Notes: generated from the sequence alone by a model not told the origin. A stretch of DNA of 32,000 nucleotides from Mycolicibacterium smegmatis (GCF_001457595.1 NZ_LN831039.1:2370001-2402000); one strand, 5' to 3'. Counted from the first letter of the stretch, positions 7,634-31,149 are shown. Made by a program: numbers and translations.

Positions 7634-7652
7634 TACCGTAATCCCTATAGTA
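7634..7652. promoter_or_regulatory. Candidate TetR operator
   Basis: TACCGTAA-TCC-CTATAGTA (14/16), embedded in the palindrome GGATTACCGTAATCC. It lies between TetR-1 (start 7434) and the hydratase operon (start 7705). Confidence 0.6.
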
Positions 7653-17602: not shown

Positions 17603-18751
17603 TCAGCGAGTGAGAATCGTGGCGCCCGCGGTGCCTGGCGCGCCGTAGAGCTGGGCGAATCCGACCTTCGGTTCGCCGGGCACCTGGCGGTCACCGGCCT
17701 CGCCGCGCAATTGGCGCACCAGTTCGTGGATCTGGCGCAGACCGGACGCGCCGATCGGCTCGCCGTTGGCGATCAGCCCGCCGTCGGTGTTGACCGGCAG
17801 CGACCCGCCGATCTCGGTGGCGCCGTCGGCGAGCAGCTTCTCCTGGTCGCCGTGCGCGCAGAACCCGCACTCGGCCATGTGGATGATCTCGGCGCCCGCA
17901 TCGGTGTCCTGCAGCTGGATCACGTCGACGTCTTCCGGCGCCACCCCGGCCTTTTCGAACGCCGCGCGAGCCGCATAGACCGTCGGCGCGACATCCTCCT
18001 CGACCGGTGCGCACGTCGTGTTCACCTCGTAGGCGCCGTAGCGGCGGGTCCGCACCTCGACGGCCTTGAGGTACACGGGTTTGTCGGTGTAGCGGTGGGC
18101 GATGTCGGCCCGGCACATCACCACCGCGGCCGCACCTTCGTCCGGTGCGCAGAACATGTACTGCGTGAGCGGATAGTTCAGCATGGTCGAGTTGAGGATG
18201 TCGTCCTCGCTGATCGGTTTGCGCCGGAAGGCATTCGGATTGAGTGCGCCGTTGCGGAAGTTCTTGGCCGCGACCCTGGCCAGGGTGCGCCGGGAGATGT
18301 TGTGGTCGTGCAGATACCGGTTGGCCTTCATGCCGAAGAACTGCGTGGTGAGGTACTGACCGTTCTCGGCGTACCACTTGGGCATGCCGACGAGCGCGGG
18401 ATCCTCGGTGAACGCCCCGCGGGGATGCTTGTCCAGGCCGACGGCGATGCCGATGTCGTAGTCGCCGAGGCGGATGCCGTCGGCGCACACCTTGGTGGCG
18501 CTCGCGGCCGTCGCGCACGCGTTGAACACGTTGGTGAACGGGATGCCCGAGAGCTCTACCATGCCGACGATCGCGTCCGGGTTGGCGACGGTCCAGCTGC
18601 CGCCGGTGGCGGCGCCGATGTCCTTCCAGTCAACCCCGGCATCGGCGACCGCCGCGAAGATCGCGTCGACGCCCATCTGCATCGCGGTCTTGCCCTCGAA
18701 CCGGCCGAACGGGTGAATGCCGACCCCGATGATCGCTACGTCGTGGGACAC
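17603..18751 (-). CDS. Thiolase-fold protein, SCP-x / lipid-transfer-protein (Ltp)-like, with altered catalytic motifs
   Basis: GTG 18751 with GGGAAGGGG Shine-Dalgarno. MSHDVAIIGVGIHPFGRFEG..., NVFNACATAAS, NTDGGLIANGEPIGASGLRQIHELVRQLRGEAG. The overall layout matches SCP2-type thiolases. Confidence 0.85.
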   Translation of the reverse strand: MSHDVAIIGVGIHPFGRFEGKTAMQMGVDAIFAAVADAGVDWKDIGAATGGSWTVANPDAIVGMVELSGIPFTNVFNACATAASATKVCADGIRLGDYDIGIAVGLDKHPRGAFTEDPALVGMPKWYAENGQYLTTQFFGMKANRYLHDHNISRRTLARVAAKNFRNGALNPNAFRRKPISEDDILNSTMLNYPLTQYMFCAPDEGAAAVVMCRADIAHRYTDKPVYLKAVEVRTRRYGAYEVNTTCAPVEEDVAPTVYAARAAFEKAGVAPEDVDVIQLQDTDAGAEIIHMAECGFCAHGDQEKLLADGATEIGGSLPVNTDGGLIANGEPIGASGLRQIHELVRQLRGEAGDRQVPGEPKVGFAQLYGAPGTAGATILTR

Positions 18752-18885
18752 GTTTCAGCCCCTTCCCGATGTGCAAGTGAAGGTGATTTCGTCGGTCCGG
18801 CCCAATGGCACTGTGCCGTCCTGCATGGCGCCGTCCTTCCGCGAAAAGTCTCGTCACACGAGCCGTCGAACCAAAAGGGTATAGC

Positions 18886-18904
18886 AACTGTAACTCTTAC
18901 AGTA
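18886..18904. promoter_or_regulatory. Candidate TetR operator
   Basis: AACTGTAA-CTC-TTACAGTA (15/16), with a perfect inverted repeat ACTGTAA/TTACAGT. It lies directly upstream of the MopB start candidates, in the divergent region with the Ltp-like gene. Confidence 0.65.
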
Positions 18905-18906
18905 AT

Positions 18907-21195
18907 GTGGTTGTGGTGATCGAGAGCGGAGCCGGCCACAAGCCTGAGCACAAGGTGACGTTCTGCCGGATCTGCGAACCGCTGTGCGGAATGATCGCCA
19001 CGGTCGAGGACGGCAGGCTCACCGCGCTGCGACCCGACAGGGACCATCCGCTGTCGGCCGGCTTCGCGTGCCAGAAAGGCATCGCGTTCGCCGAGGTGGT
19101 CAATGACCCGGACCGCATCACCACACCGCTGCGCCGGCGCGCCGACGCGAAACGGCCGGGCAACCGAACCGATGTTCTCGACGGCTTCGAACCGGTCGGC
19201 TGGGACGAGGCACTCGACGACATCGCGCACCGGCTCAGCGGTATTCACCGCAGGCACGGCTCCGGCGCGGTGGCCTGGTACATGGGCAACCCCGCGGCCT
19301 TCAGCTACTCACACCTGTTCGCGGCGATGGCATTCGCCAAGGGCATCGGAGGTGACAGCCACTTCTTCAGCTCGTCGACACAGGACACCAGCAGCCGGTT
19401 GCTCGCCAATCAGTTCCTCTACGGTGCGCCGTTCCCGGTGCCGATCCCGGATGTGATGCGTACCGATCTGCTCGTGATGATCGGCGCCAATCCCGTGGTC
19501 TCGCATGGGAGTTTCCTGACCGCGCCGCGCCTCAAGGACCGCATGCACGACATCGTCAAGCGTGGTGGGCGCGTCGTGGTCGTCGACCCCCGCCGCAGCG
19601 AGACGGCCGCGCAGTTCGAGTGGCTCGGCATCGTCCCCGACACCGACGCGTACTTCCTGCTGTCGCTGCTGCAGGTGATGTTCGACGAGAACCTCGTTGC
19701 TCCGCGCGCTGCGACCCAGGCCGACGGACTGGACTGGCTGCGGCGACAGAGTGCGCCGTTCACACCGGAGTCCACCCGCGCGCACACGGGTGTGGAGCCG
19801 GAAACCCTTCGGGCGCTGGCCCGCGACCTGGCCGGCACTGCCCGCGCGGCGGTCTACGGCAGGCTCGGCACGTGCGTCGGGCGCCACGGCACCCTGACCA
19901 CCTACCTCATCGACGCGGTCAACATCGTCGCGGGCAATCTCGACGTGCCCGGCGGAAGTGTGTTCAGCACACTGGGGATGCCCGGTCAGCGGTGGGGCTC
20001 GATGGCGATGGGCGCTTCGCTGCGCCGCAGCTACCGCACCAGGCGCACACGTGTAGGCGGGTTCAAGTCGGTGATCGGGGCTGAACCCGCGGCGCTGATG
20101 GCCAAGGAGATCACCACGCCCGGTCGCCGTCAGGTCAAGGCGATGTTCATCGGCGCGGGCAACCCGGTGCTCTCGGTGCCCAACGGGCCCGAGTTGGCCG
20201 AGGCGCTCGACGCCGCGGAGTTGACCGTCGGGCTGGACCTCTACGTCAACGAGACCACGGCACACTGTGACTATGTCCTGCCCGTGACCACGATGTACGA
20301 GCGCGACGACTTCGCCGTCACCTTCCAGATGTTCCAGGCCACCCCGTTCCGACAGGCAACCGAGGCCATGGTGGCGCCCAGAGGGCAGGCGCGCACCGAG
20401 TGGGACATCGTCGTGGACCTGATCGGCCGGATGTCGGTGCGCACACCGGTGTTCGCAATGCTGCGGTGTGCGCAGAAGCTTGCCGGGCGACGAGGCAGAC
20501 GGCTGAACCCGCGGCCGCTGATCGACGGCATGATCCGCATGGCCGACGGTGGCGACCGGTTCGGCCTGCGCCGCGACGGACTGACGTTCCGCAAGCTCGC
20601 CGAGGAGCACCCGCACGGTGTGATCGTGGCACCGCACGTGCGCACCGGTGTCCTCGGCGAGGTCGTGGTGTACCCGAAGGGCCGGGTACGCCTCGAGCAC
20701 GCCGACATCGCCACCGAGATCACCGCGCTGACGCGACGCCGCAACCCGGATGGCTTCGGCCTGCGGATGATCGGTATGCGCGAACCGCGTTCGGAGAACT
20801 CGTGGATGCACAACGCGCCGCTGCTCATGCGTGGCCAGCGCATCCAGCGGGCGTTCCTGCACGCCGACGATGCCACGGCGCGCGGGGTGCGTGACGGTGA
20901 CGTGGTGCGTGTGCGGTCACCCTTTGGACAGATCGACATCGCCGTATCGCTCACCACCGACCTCGTCCGCGGAACGGTCGCGATACCACACGGCTGGGGC
21001 CACAACGGAAGTGGTGGTTGGCGGATCGCGAACCGTGCGGGCGGGGCGAACGTCAACGAACTGATGTCCAGCGACCCGCGCGACGTGGAAGCCCTGGCGG
21101 GCATGTCGTGGCTCACCGGGGTGCCGGTGGAAGTCGAAACCTGTCACCTCCACTGCGAGAGTGTCGGCGTCGCGGCGGGTGGGAGTTCTGGGTGA
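18907..21195 (+). CDS. Molybdopterin oxidoreductase (MopB / DMSO-reductase superfamily), single-subunit, cytoplasmic type
   Basis: ORF 18805..21195. The start is uncertain: GTG 18907, 18913 or 18916, all just after the operator. The earlier part is AT-rich and non-coding. The N-terminal FeS motif is FCRICEPLCG...AGFACQKG (CxxCxxxC...C). I see no twin-arginine signal. The C-terminal MGD-binding barrel is DDATARGVRDGDVVRVRSPFGQIDIAVSL...VAIPHGWGH. Confidence 0.85.
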   Translation: MVVVIESGAGHKPEHKVTFCRICEPLCGMIATVEDGRLTALRPDRDHPLSAGFACQKGIAFAEVVNDPDRITTPLRRRADAKRPGNRTDVLDGFEPVGWDEALDDIAHRLSGIHRRHGSGAVAWYMGNPAAFSYSHLFAAMAFAKGIGGDSHFFSSSTQDTSSRLLANQFLYGAPFPVPIPDVMRTDLLVMIGANPVVSHGSFLTAPRLKDRMHDIVKRGGRVVVVDPRRSETAAQFEWLGIVPDTDAYFLLSLLQVMFDENLVAPRAATQADGLDWLRRQSAPFTPESTRAHTGVEPETLRALARDLAGTARAAVYGRLGTCVGRHGTLTTYLIDAVNIVAGNLDVPGGSVFSTLGMPGQRWGSMAMGASLRRSYRTRRTRVGGFKSVIGAEPAALMAKEITTPGRRQVKAMFIGAGNPVLSVPNGPELAEALDAAELTVGLDLYVNETTAHCDYVLPVTTMYERDDFAVTFQMFQATPFRQATEAMVAPRGQARTEWDIVVDLIGRMSVRTPVFAMLRCAQKLAGRRGRRLNPRPLIDGMIRMADGGDRFGLRRDGLTFRKLAEEHPHGVIVAPHVRTGVLGEVVVYPKGRVRLEHADIATEITALTRRRNPDGFGLRMIGMREPRSENSWMHNAPLLMRGQRIQRAFLHADDATARGVRDGDVVRVRSPFGQIDIAVSLTTDLVRGTVAIPHGWGHNGSGGWRIANRAGGANVNELMSSDPRDVEALAGMSWLTGVPVEVETCHLHCESVGVAAGGSSG

Positions 21196-22718
21196 GTGAC
21201 GTCGTGGCCGCTGCCGACAGCGTCGAGATCGGCCGTCGTGCGGCCGCACGGGCCGAGAAGAGGATGCTTATCGACGGTGAACTCGTCGCTGCTGCAGTAG
21301 ATTTCGAGAACATCAGCCCGGCAACGGGATCGGTGCTCGGCACCACATCGGCCGCATCGGCGGGTGACATGGACGCGGCGATCGGCGCGGCGCGGTGCGC
21401 GTTCGACGAGACCGACTGGTCGACCGACCGCGTGCGGCGCCAGAAGGTGCTGCTGCAGCTGCAGGATGCTCTCGAAGCCGAGAAAGAGGATCTGCGTGAG
21501 GAATTGATCGCCGAGGTCGGCTGCCCGGCGATGACGACCCAGAACGCCCAGTTGGACTGGCCGCTGGCCGAGGCGCTGCGCTACCCGGCGCGGCTGATCG
21601 ACGAATTCGAATGGGAACGCGAACTCGACGGCGGTGGACTTTTCGGTGAACGCAACGCGCGCACGGTGGTCAAGGAGCCCGTTGGTGTGGTCGCGGCGAT
21701 CACGCCGTCGAACTTCCCGATCGAGGTCATCCTCAACAAGCTCGGACCCGCATTGGCCGCGGGGAACACCGTTGTGCTCAAACCGGACCCGAACACGCCG
21801 TGGAACGCCACACGGCTCGGCCGGCTGATCGTAGAGCGCACCGACATGCCGCCCGGCGTCGTCAACGTCGTACCTACCCCGTCCAACGGGGTGGCGGCGC
21901 TGCTGGGTACCGACCCGCGGGTGGACATGGTGTCGTTCACCGGATCGACCGCCGTGGGCAAGCACCTCATGCGGGTGGGTGCGGACACCATGAAGCGCAC
22001 GTTTCTCGAACTCGGCGGCAAGTCGGCGATGATCGTGCTCGACGACGCCAAACCGGCACACATCATCCCCGGAGCAATCGGTGCCTGTGTGCACGCCGGG
22101 CAGGCGTGCGCGGCCAACACGCGGATGCTGGTGCACCGCAGCCTGTTCGACGAGGCCGTCGCCAATGTGGCGATGGCGTTCGCGGGCATACCCGTGGGTG
22201 ACCCGGCCCTGCCGACCACGCTCGTGGGCCCCGTCATCAGTGCGGCCGCCAAGCAGCGCGTGCTCGATGCGTGTGAGCGTGCCCGCCGCGACGGCGCCGA
22301 GACCGTCGTCGGGGGAGGGGAAGCCGAAGGCCTGCCCGAGCACCTGGCCGGTGGTCACTACGTGGCCCCGACGGTGATCGTCGGCGCCGATCCGCGTTCG
22401 GCGATCGCGCAGGAAGAGGTGTTCGGTCCGGTGCTGGTGATGGTCCCGTTCGACGATGACGACGAGGCTGTACGACTCGCCAACGACACGGCCTTCGGCC
22501 TTGCCGGTGCGGTGCTCTCGGCGTCGCCGGAACGTGCGATGGGGATCGCGCGGCGAATCCGCACCGGCGCGATCGGGGTCAACGGCGGCATGTACTACGG
22601 GGCCGACGCGCCATTCGGTGGTTACAAGAACAGCGGTGTCGGGCGGCAGTGCGGTATCGAGGGGTTCGCACAGTACACCGAGACCAAGACCATCGGATGG
22701 CGCCGGCCCCGGACGTGA
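21192..22718 (+). CDS. Aldehyde dehydrogenase (NAD(P)-dependent)
   Basis: ORF 21018..22718 trimmed to GTG 21192, which overlaps the MopB stop as GTGA. FTGSTAVGKH, ELGGKSAMIVLDDA, HAGQACAANTR (catalytic Cys), EEVFGPV. Confidence 0.9.
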   Translation: MSDVVAAADSVEIGRRAAARAEKRMLIDGELVAAAVDFENISPATGSVLGTTSAASAGDMDAAIGAARCAFDETDWSTDRVRRQKVLLQLQDALEAEKEDLREELIAEVGCPAMTTQNAQLDWPLAEALRYPARLIDEFEWERELDGGGLFGERNARTVVKEPVGVVAAITPSNFPIEVILNKLGPALAAGNTVVLKPDPNTPWNATRLGRLIVERTDMPPGVVNVVPTPSNGVAALLGTDPRVDMVSFTGSTAVGKHLMRVGADTMKRTFLELGGKSAMIVLDDAKPAHIIPGAIGACVHAGQACAANTRMLVHRSLFDEAVANVAMAFAGIPVGDPALPTTLVGPVISAAAKQRVLDACERARRDGAETVVGGGEAEGLPEHLAGGHYVAPTVIVGADPRSAIAQEEVFGPVLVMVPFDDDDEAVRLANDTAFGLAGAVLSASPERAMGIARRIRTGAIGVNGGMYYGADAPFGGYKNSGVGRQCGIEGFAQYTETKTIGWRRPRT

Positions 22719-22723
22719 GTTTT

Positions 22724-22786
22724 CCGCGAGCAGACACAAAACTGCTCTTTTCAGTGATTTTCGCGCAAGATTGTGTCTGCTCGCGG
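22724..22786. repeat. REP-like palindromic intergenic element, copy 2 (probable bidirectional terminator)
   Basis: It has a perfect 16-bp inverted repeat, CCGCGAGCAGACACAA (22724..22739) and TTGTGTCTGCTCGCGG (22771..22786), with a 31-nt T-rich loop. It lies between convergent ALDH (stop 22718) and TetR-2, whose last codons and stop (22751..22786) are inside it. Confidence 0.8.
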
Positions 22787-23491
22787 GGACGAATCTCGCG
22801 GCGACGCGGTGAGGTGCTCCGCACGTTCGAGGATGCTGTCGAGGATGTGGTCGAAGTTGGCGGTATCGGCCGCGCCGATCCGGTAGCCGTCGCCGGTGAG
22901 CGACGAGATCAGCGGCATGGTCTGGGGATCGATCACCTGTTGCCAATGGTCACGGGGCAGGGGCACGGTCGACGCGCGGTTCTGCAAGCGGTGCAGCACC
23001 GCGCTGCTGCGGACCAGCACCTGGATCGCCGAATAGGTCTGGACGGCCTGCTGCGGGCTCAGGCCGGCCTGCACCAGGGCCGCGACCGGTTGCTCGATCT
23101 TCTCCAGGGCGTGGCGGGCTGCAGGTGTGCCGCCCGTACCCCGGATGAGGATCAGGTCGCACAGGATGGGGTTCTGCTGAATGGTGTCGCGCATCCGGTG
23201 GGCATGGGCGCGCAGTGATTCGCGCCAGGAACCGGCGTCGATCGACGACACCCCGAAGTCGTACTCGCGCAGCGCGAGTTCGGTCATCGCGTCGAGCAGA
23301 TCGTCCTTGCGGCGGAAGTACCAGTAGATGCTGGTGACGCCCACGTCGAGATGTTTGGCCAGTTGCGGCATGCTGAGGTTGTCGACGGACACCTCACGGG
23401 CGACCTCGAAGGCGCCGCTGAGGATCTCGTCGACGGTGATCGACCCGCGTTCGCGGCGCGGACGTCCGCCGCCCGTCGCGGGGGAGGCCAT
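22751..23491 (-). CDS. TetR-family transcriptional regulator (TetR-2), paralogue of 6682..7434
   Basis: ORF 22751..23659 trimmed to ATG 23491, 2 nt after the P450 stop. MASPATGGGRPRRERGSITVDEILSGAFEVAREVSVDNLSMPQLAKHLDVGVTSIYWYFRRKDDLL. The last ~10 codons and the stop lie inside the REP-like element 22724..22786. Confidence 0.9.
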   Translation of the reverse strand: MASPATGGGRPRRERGSITVDEILSGAFEVAREVSVDNLSMPQLAKHLDVGVTSIYWYFRRKDDLLDAMTELALREYDFGVSSIDAGSWRESLRAHAHRMRDTIQQNPILCDLILIRGTGGTPAARHALEKIEQPVAALVQAGLSPQQAVQTYSAIQVLVRSSAVLHRLQNRASTVPLPRDHWQQVIDPQTMPLISSLTGDGYRIGAADTANFDHILDSILERAEHLTASPRDSSPRADTILRENH

Positions 23492-24730: not shown

Positions 24731-24749
24731 TACCGTAAAGGTTACAGTA
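24731..24749. promoter_or_regulatory. Candidate TetR operator (best copy)
   Basis: TACCGTAA-AGG-TTACAGTA (16/16). It lies 29 nt upstream of the GTG of the P450-TetR-2 operon, in the divergent region with ALDH 24922. Confidence 0.7.
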
Positions 24750-29724: not shown

Positions 29725-29743
29725 TACGGAAGAAGTTACAGTA
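29725..29743. promoter_or_regulatory. Candidate TetR operator upstream of the Rieske operon
   Basis: TACGGAAG-AAG-TTACAGTA (13/16). It is also part of three direct TTACNG hexamers at 29724, 29736 and 29748 (12-bp spacing), 30 nt upstream of ATG 29695. Confidence 0.5.
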
Positions 29744-31130: not shown

Positions 31131-31149
31131 TACTGTAAACGCTACCGTA
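31131..31149. promoter_or_regulatory. Candidate TetR operator
   Basis: TACTGTAA-ACG-CTACCGTA (14/16). It lies in the divergent region between the DinB-like gene (start 31038) and the epimerase gene (start 31188). Confidence 0.55.

Follow-up and report, generated by a model that had tools for sequence, protein, structure and literature searches.

A putative stand-alone molybdopterin enzyme with a candidate aspartate metal ligand in a catabolic island of Mycolicibacterium smegmatis

The stretch of the Mycolicibacterium smegmatis genome described here (NZ_LN831039.1:2370001-2402000, 32,000 nucleotides, hereafter the window) carries a gene for an enzyme of the MopB or DMSO-reductase superfamily, here simply called MopB, whose stop codon overlaps the start of an aldehyde dehydrogenase (ALDH) gene. 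New at this locus are an invariant aspartate at the metal-ligand position, the large uncharacterised clade to which MopB belongs, fused relatives within that clade, conservation of the surrounding regulon, and an apparently recent origin of the GTGA overlap between the two genes. The genome is a single contig of 6.98 Mb, GC content in the window is 63-72%, and the nearest relatives of its proteins carry the names Mycolicibacterium or Mycobacterium. Pfam scans of the window's main open reading frames (ORFs; one small ORF was not included) recover a CoA-dependent catabolic island of six crotonases, a classical and an Ltp/SCP-x-like thiolase, four AMP-binding (acyl-CoA synthetase-type) genes, an adjacent pair of acyl-CoA dehydrogenases (ACADs), three amidohydrolase_2 genes, a short-chain dehydrogenase/reductase (SDR), two ALDHs, a cytochrome P450, two TetR regulators, and a KshA-like Rieske oxygenase with an isochorismatase-like gene; two small ORFs match no family. 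The beta-oxidation setting proposed in the first-pass annotation of this DNA, and the link of MopB to an ALDH within it, are real.

Architecture and candidate metal ligand of MopB

The MopB frame is open from 18805 to 21195, and translation from the GTG at 18907 yields a 762-residue product that matches Pfam Molybdop_Fe4S4, Molybdopterin and Molydop_binding (38, 123 and 72 bits, all over the cut-offs). The AlphaFold 2 (AF2) model of this product has a pLDDT of 92.7 and a pTM of 0.94, with pLDDT below 50 at residues 756-762, and Pfam, AF2 and Foldseek together give the domain architecture and four-domain fold of the superfamily. The cluster cysteines are C20, C23, C27 and C55 (codons at 18964, 18973, 18985 and 19069). 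The N-terminal FeS motif and the C-terminal barrel binding molybdopterin guanine dinucleotide (MGD) of the first-pass annotation are both present. Annotated orthologues begin 8-14 residues ahead of the first cluster cysteine (MIESKAESKVTFCRIC...), which places the start at one of three GTGs (18907, 18913 or 18916); longer ORF calls translate the operator described below as SNCNSYSN. No twin-arginine (RR) motif is found at this N-terminus and the segment is too short to hold a signal for twin-arginine translocation (Tat), which argues for a cytoplasmic enzyme. The first-pass annotation had likewise seen no Tat signal, no selenocysteine (Sec) codon and no adjoining electron-transfer or chaperone subunit, and on all three points we agree: the frame has no internal stop, hence no in-frame TGA, and the scanned main ORFs of the window include no ferredoxin, reductase, FeS-subunit or NarJ/TorD/FdhD-type genes. 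Redox partners for the P450 and the Rieske oxygenase of the island are also absent from the scanned ORFs, so that a soluble ferredoxin system common to all three enzymes is plausible.

The segment expected to supply the metal ligand (HFFSSSTQDTSS, residues 152-163) contains no cysteine. It was compared across alignments of 107 and 82 cluster representatives, the 82 being at 29-52% identity. Among these 82, Asp160 (the D of STQDTSS) is invariant, as are C20, C23, C27 and C55, and Glu24 and Lys57 are kept in at least 90%, with Asp at position 24 in a few. The serines flanking Asp160 vary across the family alignments, and position 158, which is Ser in at least 90% of the 14 closest sequences, is Thr in the window protein and varies in the wider family. 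In a search of PDB sequences with a profile built from these 82, Asp160 aligned with the metal ligand in all five of the alignments listed, namely the Cys of FdhF from the hydrogen-dependent CO2 reductase (HDCR; 7qv7), Cys173 of polysulfide reductase (Psr; 2vpw), the Sec of F420-dependent formate dehydrogenase (FDH; 9t1s), and the Cys of two further FDHs (9wxb and 7bkb). The earlier view of this segment as Ser-rich and free of Cys thus holds as to the missing Cys or Sec, but the alignments proposed for fixing the ligand point to the invariant Asp160, in the motif QDT, and not to a serine. We infer that Asp160 is the metal ligand of MopB, and would define the clade by this invariant Asp together with the near-invariant Glu that immediately follows cysteine two of the cluster.

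Operator, gene junction and conserved locus

The operator seen in the first-pass annotation as near-perfect is in fact a perfect 7-3-7 palindrome (ACTGTAActcTTACAGT), enriched in the window and placed 4 nt before the GTG at 18907 (Table 1). In most orthologous loci it lies 12-37 nt ahead of the point where the MopB alignment begins, and it recurs in those loci before the MopB/Ltp, ALDH and P450 genes, such that the operator, like the genes, is conserved. The palindrome would thus define a TetR regulon common to related mycobacteria, made up of the Ltp-thiolase operon, MopB, the ALDH and the P450-TetR unit, and TetR-2 is likely to be the repressor that binds it. An E. coli-type promoter scan found nothing; the right arm of the palindrome, TACAGT, fits a TANNNT -10 box and would be compatible with a leaderless start. 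Degenerate copies with two to three mismatches occur at 7635-7651, 29726-29742 and 31132-31148, where they adjoin TetR-1 and a crotonase gene, stand upstream of the Rieske-oxygenase operon, and precede an SDR/epimerase gene. The regulon may extend over the whole island.

At the junction, MopB ends ...GGG TGA, and this TGA (21193-21195) overlaps the ALDH GTG (21192-21194). The ALDH N-terminus, VS[DE]VV...IGRRAA.RAEKRMLIDGELV, is kept in nine orthologous loci, which argues that the GTG at 21192 is the real start. The translated ALDH carries ELGGKS and GQAC motifs; its best model is TIGR04284 (Rv0768-type) at 599 bits, under the hypothetical-equivalog cut-off of 775, and together with its Pfam match this would place it in a branch neighbouring the Rv0768 type. 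Most orthologous MopB proteins in the junction alignment end ...VPVQVExx before the stop, and in relatives a spacer of ~30-130 nt (~400 nt in locus L091) with an operator copy precedes the ALDH GTG; in the window both spacer and operator are gone and MopB runs on for 18 codons into the ALDH start. The GTGA overlap, which had been taken for translational coupling, is therefore real but not conserved, and given the operator-bearing spacer of the relatives it probably reflects a recent, possibly recurrent compaction through loss of that spacer and no conserved coupling device. A 75%-identical Mycolicibacterium orthologue (L079:9100-9250) has a similarly collapsed MopB stop and ALDH start with the operator missing, which suggests that the spacer was lost more than once.

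MopB matches at E<1e-100 are found in 80 of the 201 genomes of the GTDB family, and flanking sequence was fetched for many of these 80 genomes as well as for 80 named loci. We term island-type those loci in which MopB, at 60-100% identity, has an Ltp-like thiolase divergent upstream; there are 21 of them including the window, and MopB identity in the relatives is 66-88%, save for 60% in one partial alignment. An ALDH orthologue (70-88% identity) lies downstream on the same strand in all but one of the 21, directly adjacent to MopB in nine and behind an opposite-strand CoA-transferase family III gene (Pfam) in 11. A P450 gene is found downstream in all but two of the fetched island-type stretches, and a TetR gene, at the chosen identity thresholds, in about half. 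Thus the MopB-ALDH pair, whose conservation the first-pass annotation had proposed as a check, is well kept in island-type loci but not across the wider family; the linkage is confined to the island-type mycobacterial clade. In one locus (L039:3667-6891), a gene for a 1074-aa adenylate-cyclase/AAA ATPase regulator is inserted between MopB and the CoA-transferase/ALDH genes.

Table 1. Features of MopB and its surroundings, in window coordinates
Feature	Coordinates	Strand	Remark
Ltp/SCP-x-like thiolase	17603..18751	-	Pfam Thiolase_C_1/Thiolase_N; first gene of operon divergent from MopB
Operator-like palindrome ACTGTAA-N3-TTACAGT	18887..18903	.	5 window matches with at most 3 mismatches vs 0.08 expected
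MopB (Mo/W-bis-MGD) enzyme, 762 aa	18907..21195	+	Start alternatives GTG 18913 or 18916
[4Fe-4S] motif C20-x2-C23-E24-x2-C27...C55-x-K57	18964..19071	+	Glu24 codon 18976-18978
Asp160 codon, candidate Mo/W ligand	19384..19386	+	Invariant in 82 representatives
18-codon C-terminal read-through tail TCHLHCESVGVAAGGSSG	21139..21192	+	Most orthologues without tail
GTGA overlap, MopB stop/ALDH start	21192..21195	+	Read from the sequence
NAD(P)-dependent ALDH, 508 aa, putative Rv0768-like branch	21192..22718	+	Pfam Aldedh 437 bits
Terminator-like hairpin, then TTTT	22728..22747	+	10 nt past ALDH stop
TetR-2 (TetR family)	22751..23491	-	Pfam TetR_N/TetR_C_1; co-transcribed with P450 gene; syntenic in orthologous loci
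Cytochrome P450	23494..24702	-	Pfam p450; operator copy upstream, kept in relatives
Second operator copy, 1 mismatch	24732..24748	.	Between P450 gene and divergent second ALDH gene

The wider clade and its place in the superfamily

A protein search over 1.84 billion cluster representatives gave 14907 matches, of which 1406 (50%-identity clusters) lie at E<1e-30. Members, as seen among related loci gathered with a 14-sequence alignment, occur in Actinomycetota, Myxococcota, Gamma- and Betaproteobacteria, Binatota and others; the best 150 representatives are mostly full-length (700-760 aa) at 31-54% identity. No characterised member of the clade was found in the literature. Several metagenomic relatives are fused proteins, and fused relatives retain the Asp. 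P0381 has the order MopB-flavodoxin-FAD_binding_1-NAD_binding_1, that is, a diflavin reductase of the cytochrome P450 reductase (CPR)/CysJ type; P0200 and P0379 carry N-terminal Fer4 and Pyr_redox_2 domains ahead of MopB; P0383 is a MopB-MobA fusion; and P0238 is fused to the N-terminal domain of glutathione S-transferase (GST). In addition, a Pyr_redox_2 gene lies 26 nt downstream of MopB in a 50%-identity relative. The MobA fusion supports an MGD cofactor in the clade and, together with the reductase modules, argues that its members are true redox enzymes that use MGD and into which electrons enter from NAD(P)H. Among proteins >1334 aa no relative was found. Open frames of 1180-1310 aa at Rhodococcus-type homologues were considered as N-terminal fusions and rejected, as they hold no Pfam domain and NCBI lists lengths of 711-747 aa; they are probably read-through of high-GC DNA.

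The genomic settings of other members are varied, ranging from TetR, LacI, NUDIX and binding-protein genes to Pyr_redox_2 genes. In several mycobacteria a paralogous MopB clade at 64-66% identity lies between rplJ-rplL-ABC ATPase and rpoB-rpoC; at L085:4749-16162 (also L087, L088, L090, L104 and L041) the genes run rplJ, rplL, Mkl-like ABC ATPase, MopB, a ~650-aa protein without annotation, rpoB and rpoC. At L055:7247-12800 (genome G116), two same-strand MopB paralogues stand in tandem (51% and 33% identity to the query), the first as a 1081-aa open frame. Acyl-CoA genes occur beside members in unrelated lineages: a Hydrogenophilaceae metagenome-assembled genome (MAG; 40% identity) has DUF35/OB-fold, Ltp-like thiolase, ACAD and NDP-forming CoA ligase genes beside MopB; in an actinobacterial MAG (64% identity) an ACAD gene overlaps the MopB start; Litorivivens has luciferase-like oxidoreductases, ACADs and SDRs; an uncultured actinobacterium has an amidohydrolase_2, a luciferase-like oxidoreductase and an Ltp-like thiolase; and a Binatia MAG has an SDR, a CoA-transferase and an ACAD. 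In the Hydrogenophilaceae cluster (L115:433-10961) the genes run from a GMC oxidoreductase through MopB, DUF35/OB-fold and Ltp-like thiolase to ACAD, faced by a second DUF35 and Ltp pair with an NDP-forming acyl-CoA synthetase.

Within the superfamily, no NCBIfam model reaches its cut-off against MopB. The best, TIGR01591 (Fdh-alpha), scores 180 bits against a cut-off of 666.25, followed by PhsA (157/694), bisC TIGR00509 (135/1017.55), type II TIGR03479 (120/985), and the nitrate reductase models NF047855 (NasC; 106 vs 1100) and NF041323 (81 vs 1000). The S-/N-oxide reductases (BisC/DorA/TorA) are marked by a Ser ligand without an FeS cluster, whereas MopB has a Cys4 cluster and Asp. Foldseek returns NapA, FDHs, MtsZ, Psr, Arr, acetylene hydratase (AH) and DMSO reductase at probability 1.00 and TM 0.66-0.75, none outstanding, and ESM Atlas matches bear only generic names. 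PDB profile E-values are 2.8e-100 for FdhF, 3.6e-96 for Psr and 1.6e-78 for AH.

The genome has eleven other places with MopB domains. Ten were scanned with NCBIfam and include an FdhF-type FDH (924 bits with TIGR01591), a Sec-type FDH, two Nas-type enzymes, NarG, BisC (1037 bits with TIGR00509), DmsA-like and YdeP proteins, one with a below-cut-off Fdh-alpha match, and one without a match. The genome's actinobacterial-type FDH lies outside the window (G000:C1:1995511-1997088, L073/L074; NF041513, 1479 bits) and has an in-frame TGA within its MopB domain, likely a Sec codon. In a quick maximum-likelihood tree, whose outgroups were paralogues from the window's genome only, the FdhF, Nas and YdeP paralogues split from all else in the tree with 97% SH-aLRT support. 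The family falls into two supported subclades, A (with the window protein) and B, which share one polytomy with NarG and the BisC/DmsA-like proteins, leaving the monophyly of A plus B unresolved. The phylogenetic placement sought by the first-pass annotation thus sets MopB apart from the genome's own Nas and FdhF paralogues. The finding that would have refuted that annotation, a place among the FDHs or assimilatory nitrate reductases with a conserved Cys ligand, does not occur, and the ALDH link is kept in island-type loci. MopB is a single-subunit enzyme, as first described, and its clade is distinct from FDH, Nas, Nar, BisC and AH.

Proposed role, alternatives and known systems

On balance we lean, by a little, towards MopB being a stand-alone cytoplasmic redox enzyme with a bis-MGD cofactor, of an Asp-type clade, in a TetR-controlled CoA-dependent catabolic regulon. 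It would hold Mo or W bis-MGD and one [4Fe-4S] cluster without a dedicated partner gene, and exchange electrons with flavoproteins or ferredoxins of soluble, NAD(P)H-linked systems. The gene is promoter-proximal in a unit of two, the ALDH gene being the other, and would be governed by a TetR-type operator along with the divergent Ltp-thiolase/amidohydrolase operon and the P450-TetR operon; this co-control suggests that the substrate is an intermediate in the CoA-dependent breakdown of a lipid or side chain. The chemistry would be a two-electron oxygen-atom transfer at an Asp-ligated Mo; that it runs as a reductive removal of oxygen driven by NAD(P)H or ferredoxin seems to us nearly an even call, falling just short of it. 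We infer the substrate class, reaction direction and electron donors from these features. A bolder proposal, which we regard as rather doubtful, is that the clade is a new catalytic class of cytoplasmic Mo/W-bisMGD enzymes that join an Asp-ligated metal to a Cys4 [4Fe-4S] cluster and an AH-like second-sphere Glu, and whose reaction in aerobes, on intermediates of acyl-CoA or lipid type, would be new to the superfamily (NAD(P)H-driven reductive dehydroxylation or deoxygenation, say, or oxygen-independent hydroxylation), and that it may include Rv0197 of M. tuberculosis.

Several points weigh against a redox role in this pathway. The Asp ligand is assigned solely from sequence alignment, and a near-invariant carboxylate after the second cluster cysteine is otherwise the hallmark of the non-redox AH. 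Redox-module fusions are few (3 of the 150 best representatives) and by motif belong to sister subclade B, such that NAD(P)H input in the window's subclade A would be an extension from B. The 86 immediate neighbours of non-mycobacterial members fall in 128 Pfam families, none recurring in more than four, so that recruitment into the ALDH/CoA context may be just one of many such events; nor do these neighbours show a conserved chaperone or electron-transfer subunit. Finally, the clade lacks any characterised member, and no result points to a substrate.

Steroid C25 dehydrogenase, ethylbenzene dehydrogenase and phenylacetyl-CoA oxidoreductase work by water-dependent hydroxylation, and the type II hydroxylases have an Asp metal ligand. 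It is conceivable, although we think it unlikely, that MopB is such a hydroxylase or dehydrogenase, in which an Asp-ligated Mo=O oxidises a C-H bond or an alcohol with oxygen from water, the product alcohol or aldehyde passes to the ALDH, and electrons leave via the [4Fe-4S] cluster to a soluble acceptor. Asp at the ligand position, as aligned, the MopB-then-ALDH order of 20 of the 21 island loci, and the acyl-CoA and side-chain genes that recur beside distant members all suit this. However, MopB is not type II by its TIGR03479 score, has a CxxCxxxC cluster motif, and lacks beta and gamma subunits and a Tat signal; beta (4-cluster FeS) and NarJ-type genes are found neither in the window scans nor beside 86 distant members. 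The fused relatives, moreover, bear a CPR-type diflavin reductase, and modules of this type serve to hand NADPH electrons on to an acceptor, not to receive them, while the island of this aerobe already holds a P450 and a Rieske oxygenase for hydroxylations. The steroid C25-hydroxylase precedent raised at first pass is thus apt for the Asp position shared by both enzymes, but the NAD(P)H input implied by the fusions favours a reductase at least equally.

Less probable still is a general cytoplasmic detoxifying or repair reductase (for an S-oxide, N-oxide, oxyanion or the like), whose place in the island would reflect co-regulation only, with no intermediate in common with the ALDH. The wider family's lack of a conserved neighbour, its several paralogues per genome (one clade of them between rplJL-mkl and rpoBC), its TetR, LacI, NUDIX or GST-type contexts and fusions, and the reductase-module fusions would all accord with such a role. 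Against it, the Ltp-MopB-(CoA-transferase)-ALDH-TetR-P450 block and its operators are kept across species at 66-88% MopB identity, and acyl-CoA genes lie beside members in four distant lineages.

We give little credence to an AH-like non-redox hydratase, in which a reduced metal and Glu24 would hydrate an unsaturated bond (alkyne, allene or enol-type) and hand an aldehyde to the ALDH. Glu24 stands exactly where AH has Asp13, a residue which follows Cys12, is specific to the AH subfamily and tolerates the change D13E (2025 review, PMC12096430); a hydratase-then-ALDH order fits the gene order and mirrors the path from acetylene to acetaldehyde to acetate; and the AH structure is among the fold matches (TM 0.74). 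Yet the W ligand Cys141, strictly conserved in AH (same review), is replaced by the invariant Asp, an equivalence drawn through the FDH and Psr alignments; AH is not the closest solved relative, FdhF and Psr both giving better E-values; the NAD(P)H-dependent reductase fusions argue for catalytic electron flow; and the clade is far too big, and its contexts too varied, for a rare substrate class. A divergent FDH or assimilatory nitrate reductase, as many orthologue annotations imply (some sources name them formate dehydrogenase) and as the sequence and fold matches to FdhF, FdhH and NapA might suggest, has almost nothing left to recommend it, given model scores far below the cut-offs, the 97% split in the tree, the alignment of Asp160-Thr161 with Cys-His without conservation of the following His in the family, and the RGQNNVQG Arg motif of FDHs, which stands outside the family profile as an insertion and whose Arg is paired with Leu in the pairwise alignment.

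The metal ligand is the main basis on which Mo/W bis-MGD enzymes are classified. If MopB is indeed a redox enzyme of an Asp-type clade that is large, mostly aerobic, stand-alone and cytoplasmic, it would add a combination so far absent, namely Asp with a standard Cys4 cluster and an AH-type carboxylate, and thousands of 'formate dehydrogenase' or 'anaerobic selenocysteine-containing dehydrogenase' annotations would be corrected. The mycobacterial island offers a tractable entry, with its defined TetR operator, its two-gene ALDH unit, and neighbouring P450 and CoA genes, which limit the candidates for inducer and substrate.

Among known systems, AH of Pelobacter (Syntrophotalea) acetylenica (2E7Z) resembles MopB as a cytoplasmic, single-subunit bis-MGD enzyme of ~730 aa in which a single Cys4 [4Fe-4S] cluster lies at the N-terminus and a carboxylate immediately follows the second of its cysteines; the aldehyde that AH makes is then oxidised by an ALDH. 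It differs in its ligand (Cys141 vs Asp160), in being only the 11th-best PDB sequence match, and from the clade in that clade relatives carry NAD(P)H reductase modules as fusions. The cytoplasmic FDHs (FdhF of HDCR, 7qv7, and E. coli FdhH, 1aa6) rank first among sequence and profile matches (E 2.8e-100); like MopB they are cytoplasmic, arrange their domains in the same order, and have the Cys4 cluster with a Lys following the fourth cysteine. MopB lacks their Sec/Cys-His pair and catalytic Arg motif, lies far under the TIGR01591 cut-off, and is separate in the tree.

The type II Asp-ligand enzymes (NarG, ethylbenzene dehydrogenase, steroid C25 dehydrogenase and perchlorate reductase) have Asp at the ligand position, as MopB does by alignment, and the hydroxylases among them take hydrocarbon or steroid side chains as substrates, but they are heterotrimeric with FeS and haem subunits, mostly Tat-exported to the periplasm (NarG faces the cytoplasm), and have another FS0 motif. 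A comprehensive survey of the superfamily from 2023 names the type II group and haloarchaeal DmsA as the only enzymes with Asp coordination. The NasN-type monomeric diflavin nitrate reductase of mycobacteria has, in architecture only, the same MopB-flavodoxin-FAD-NAD layout as P0381, a layout that suggests how the clade can be fed from NADPH; it differs in its Cys ligand and Nas clade, the window's MopB being unfused, and the genome's own NasN-type copy (L064) falls across the 97%-supported split from the MopB clade.

The catechol dehydroxylases of gut bacteria (PMC7028382) were considered as functional analogues by description only. Closer to home, M. tuberculosis Rv0197 is an uncharacterized oxidoreductase with a molybdopterin site (PMC2936551), and Rv0196-Rv0197 are induced by p-hydroxybenzaldehyde (PMC10470581); we liken it to MopB by length class (Tyr749 near the C-terminus) and annotation alone. 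Both hallmarks of the clade are carried by a protein of the slow grower M. paraense (WP_085101037.1, 38% identity), and Rv0197, if a clade member, would fall in sister subclade B with a different gene context. Its membership would bring the clade to bear on an orphan molybdenum-cofactor enzyme that has been repeatedly flagged by genome-wide association studies.

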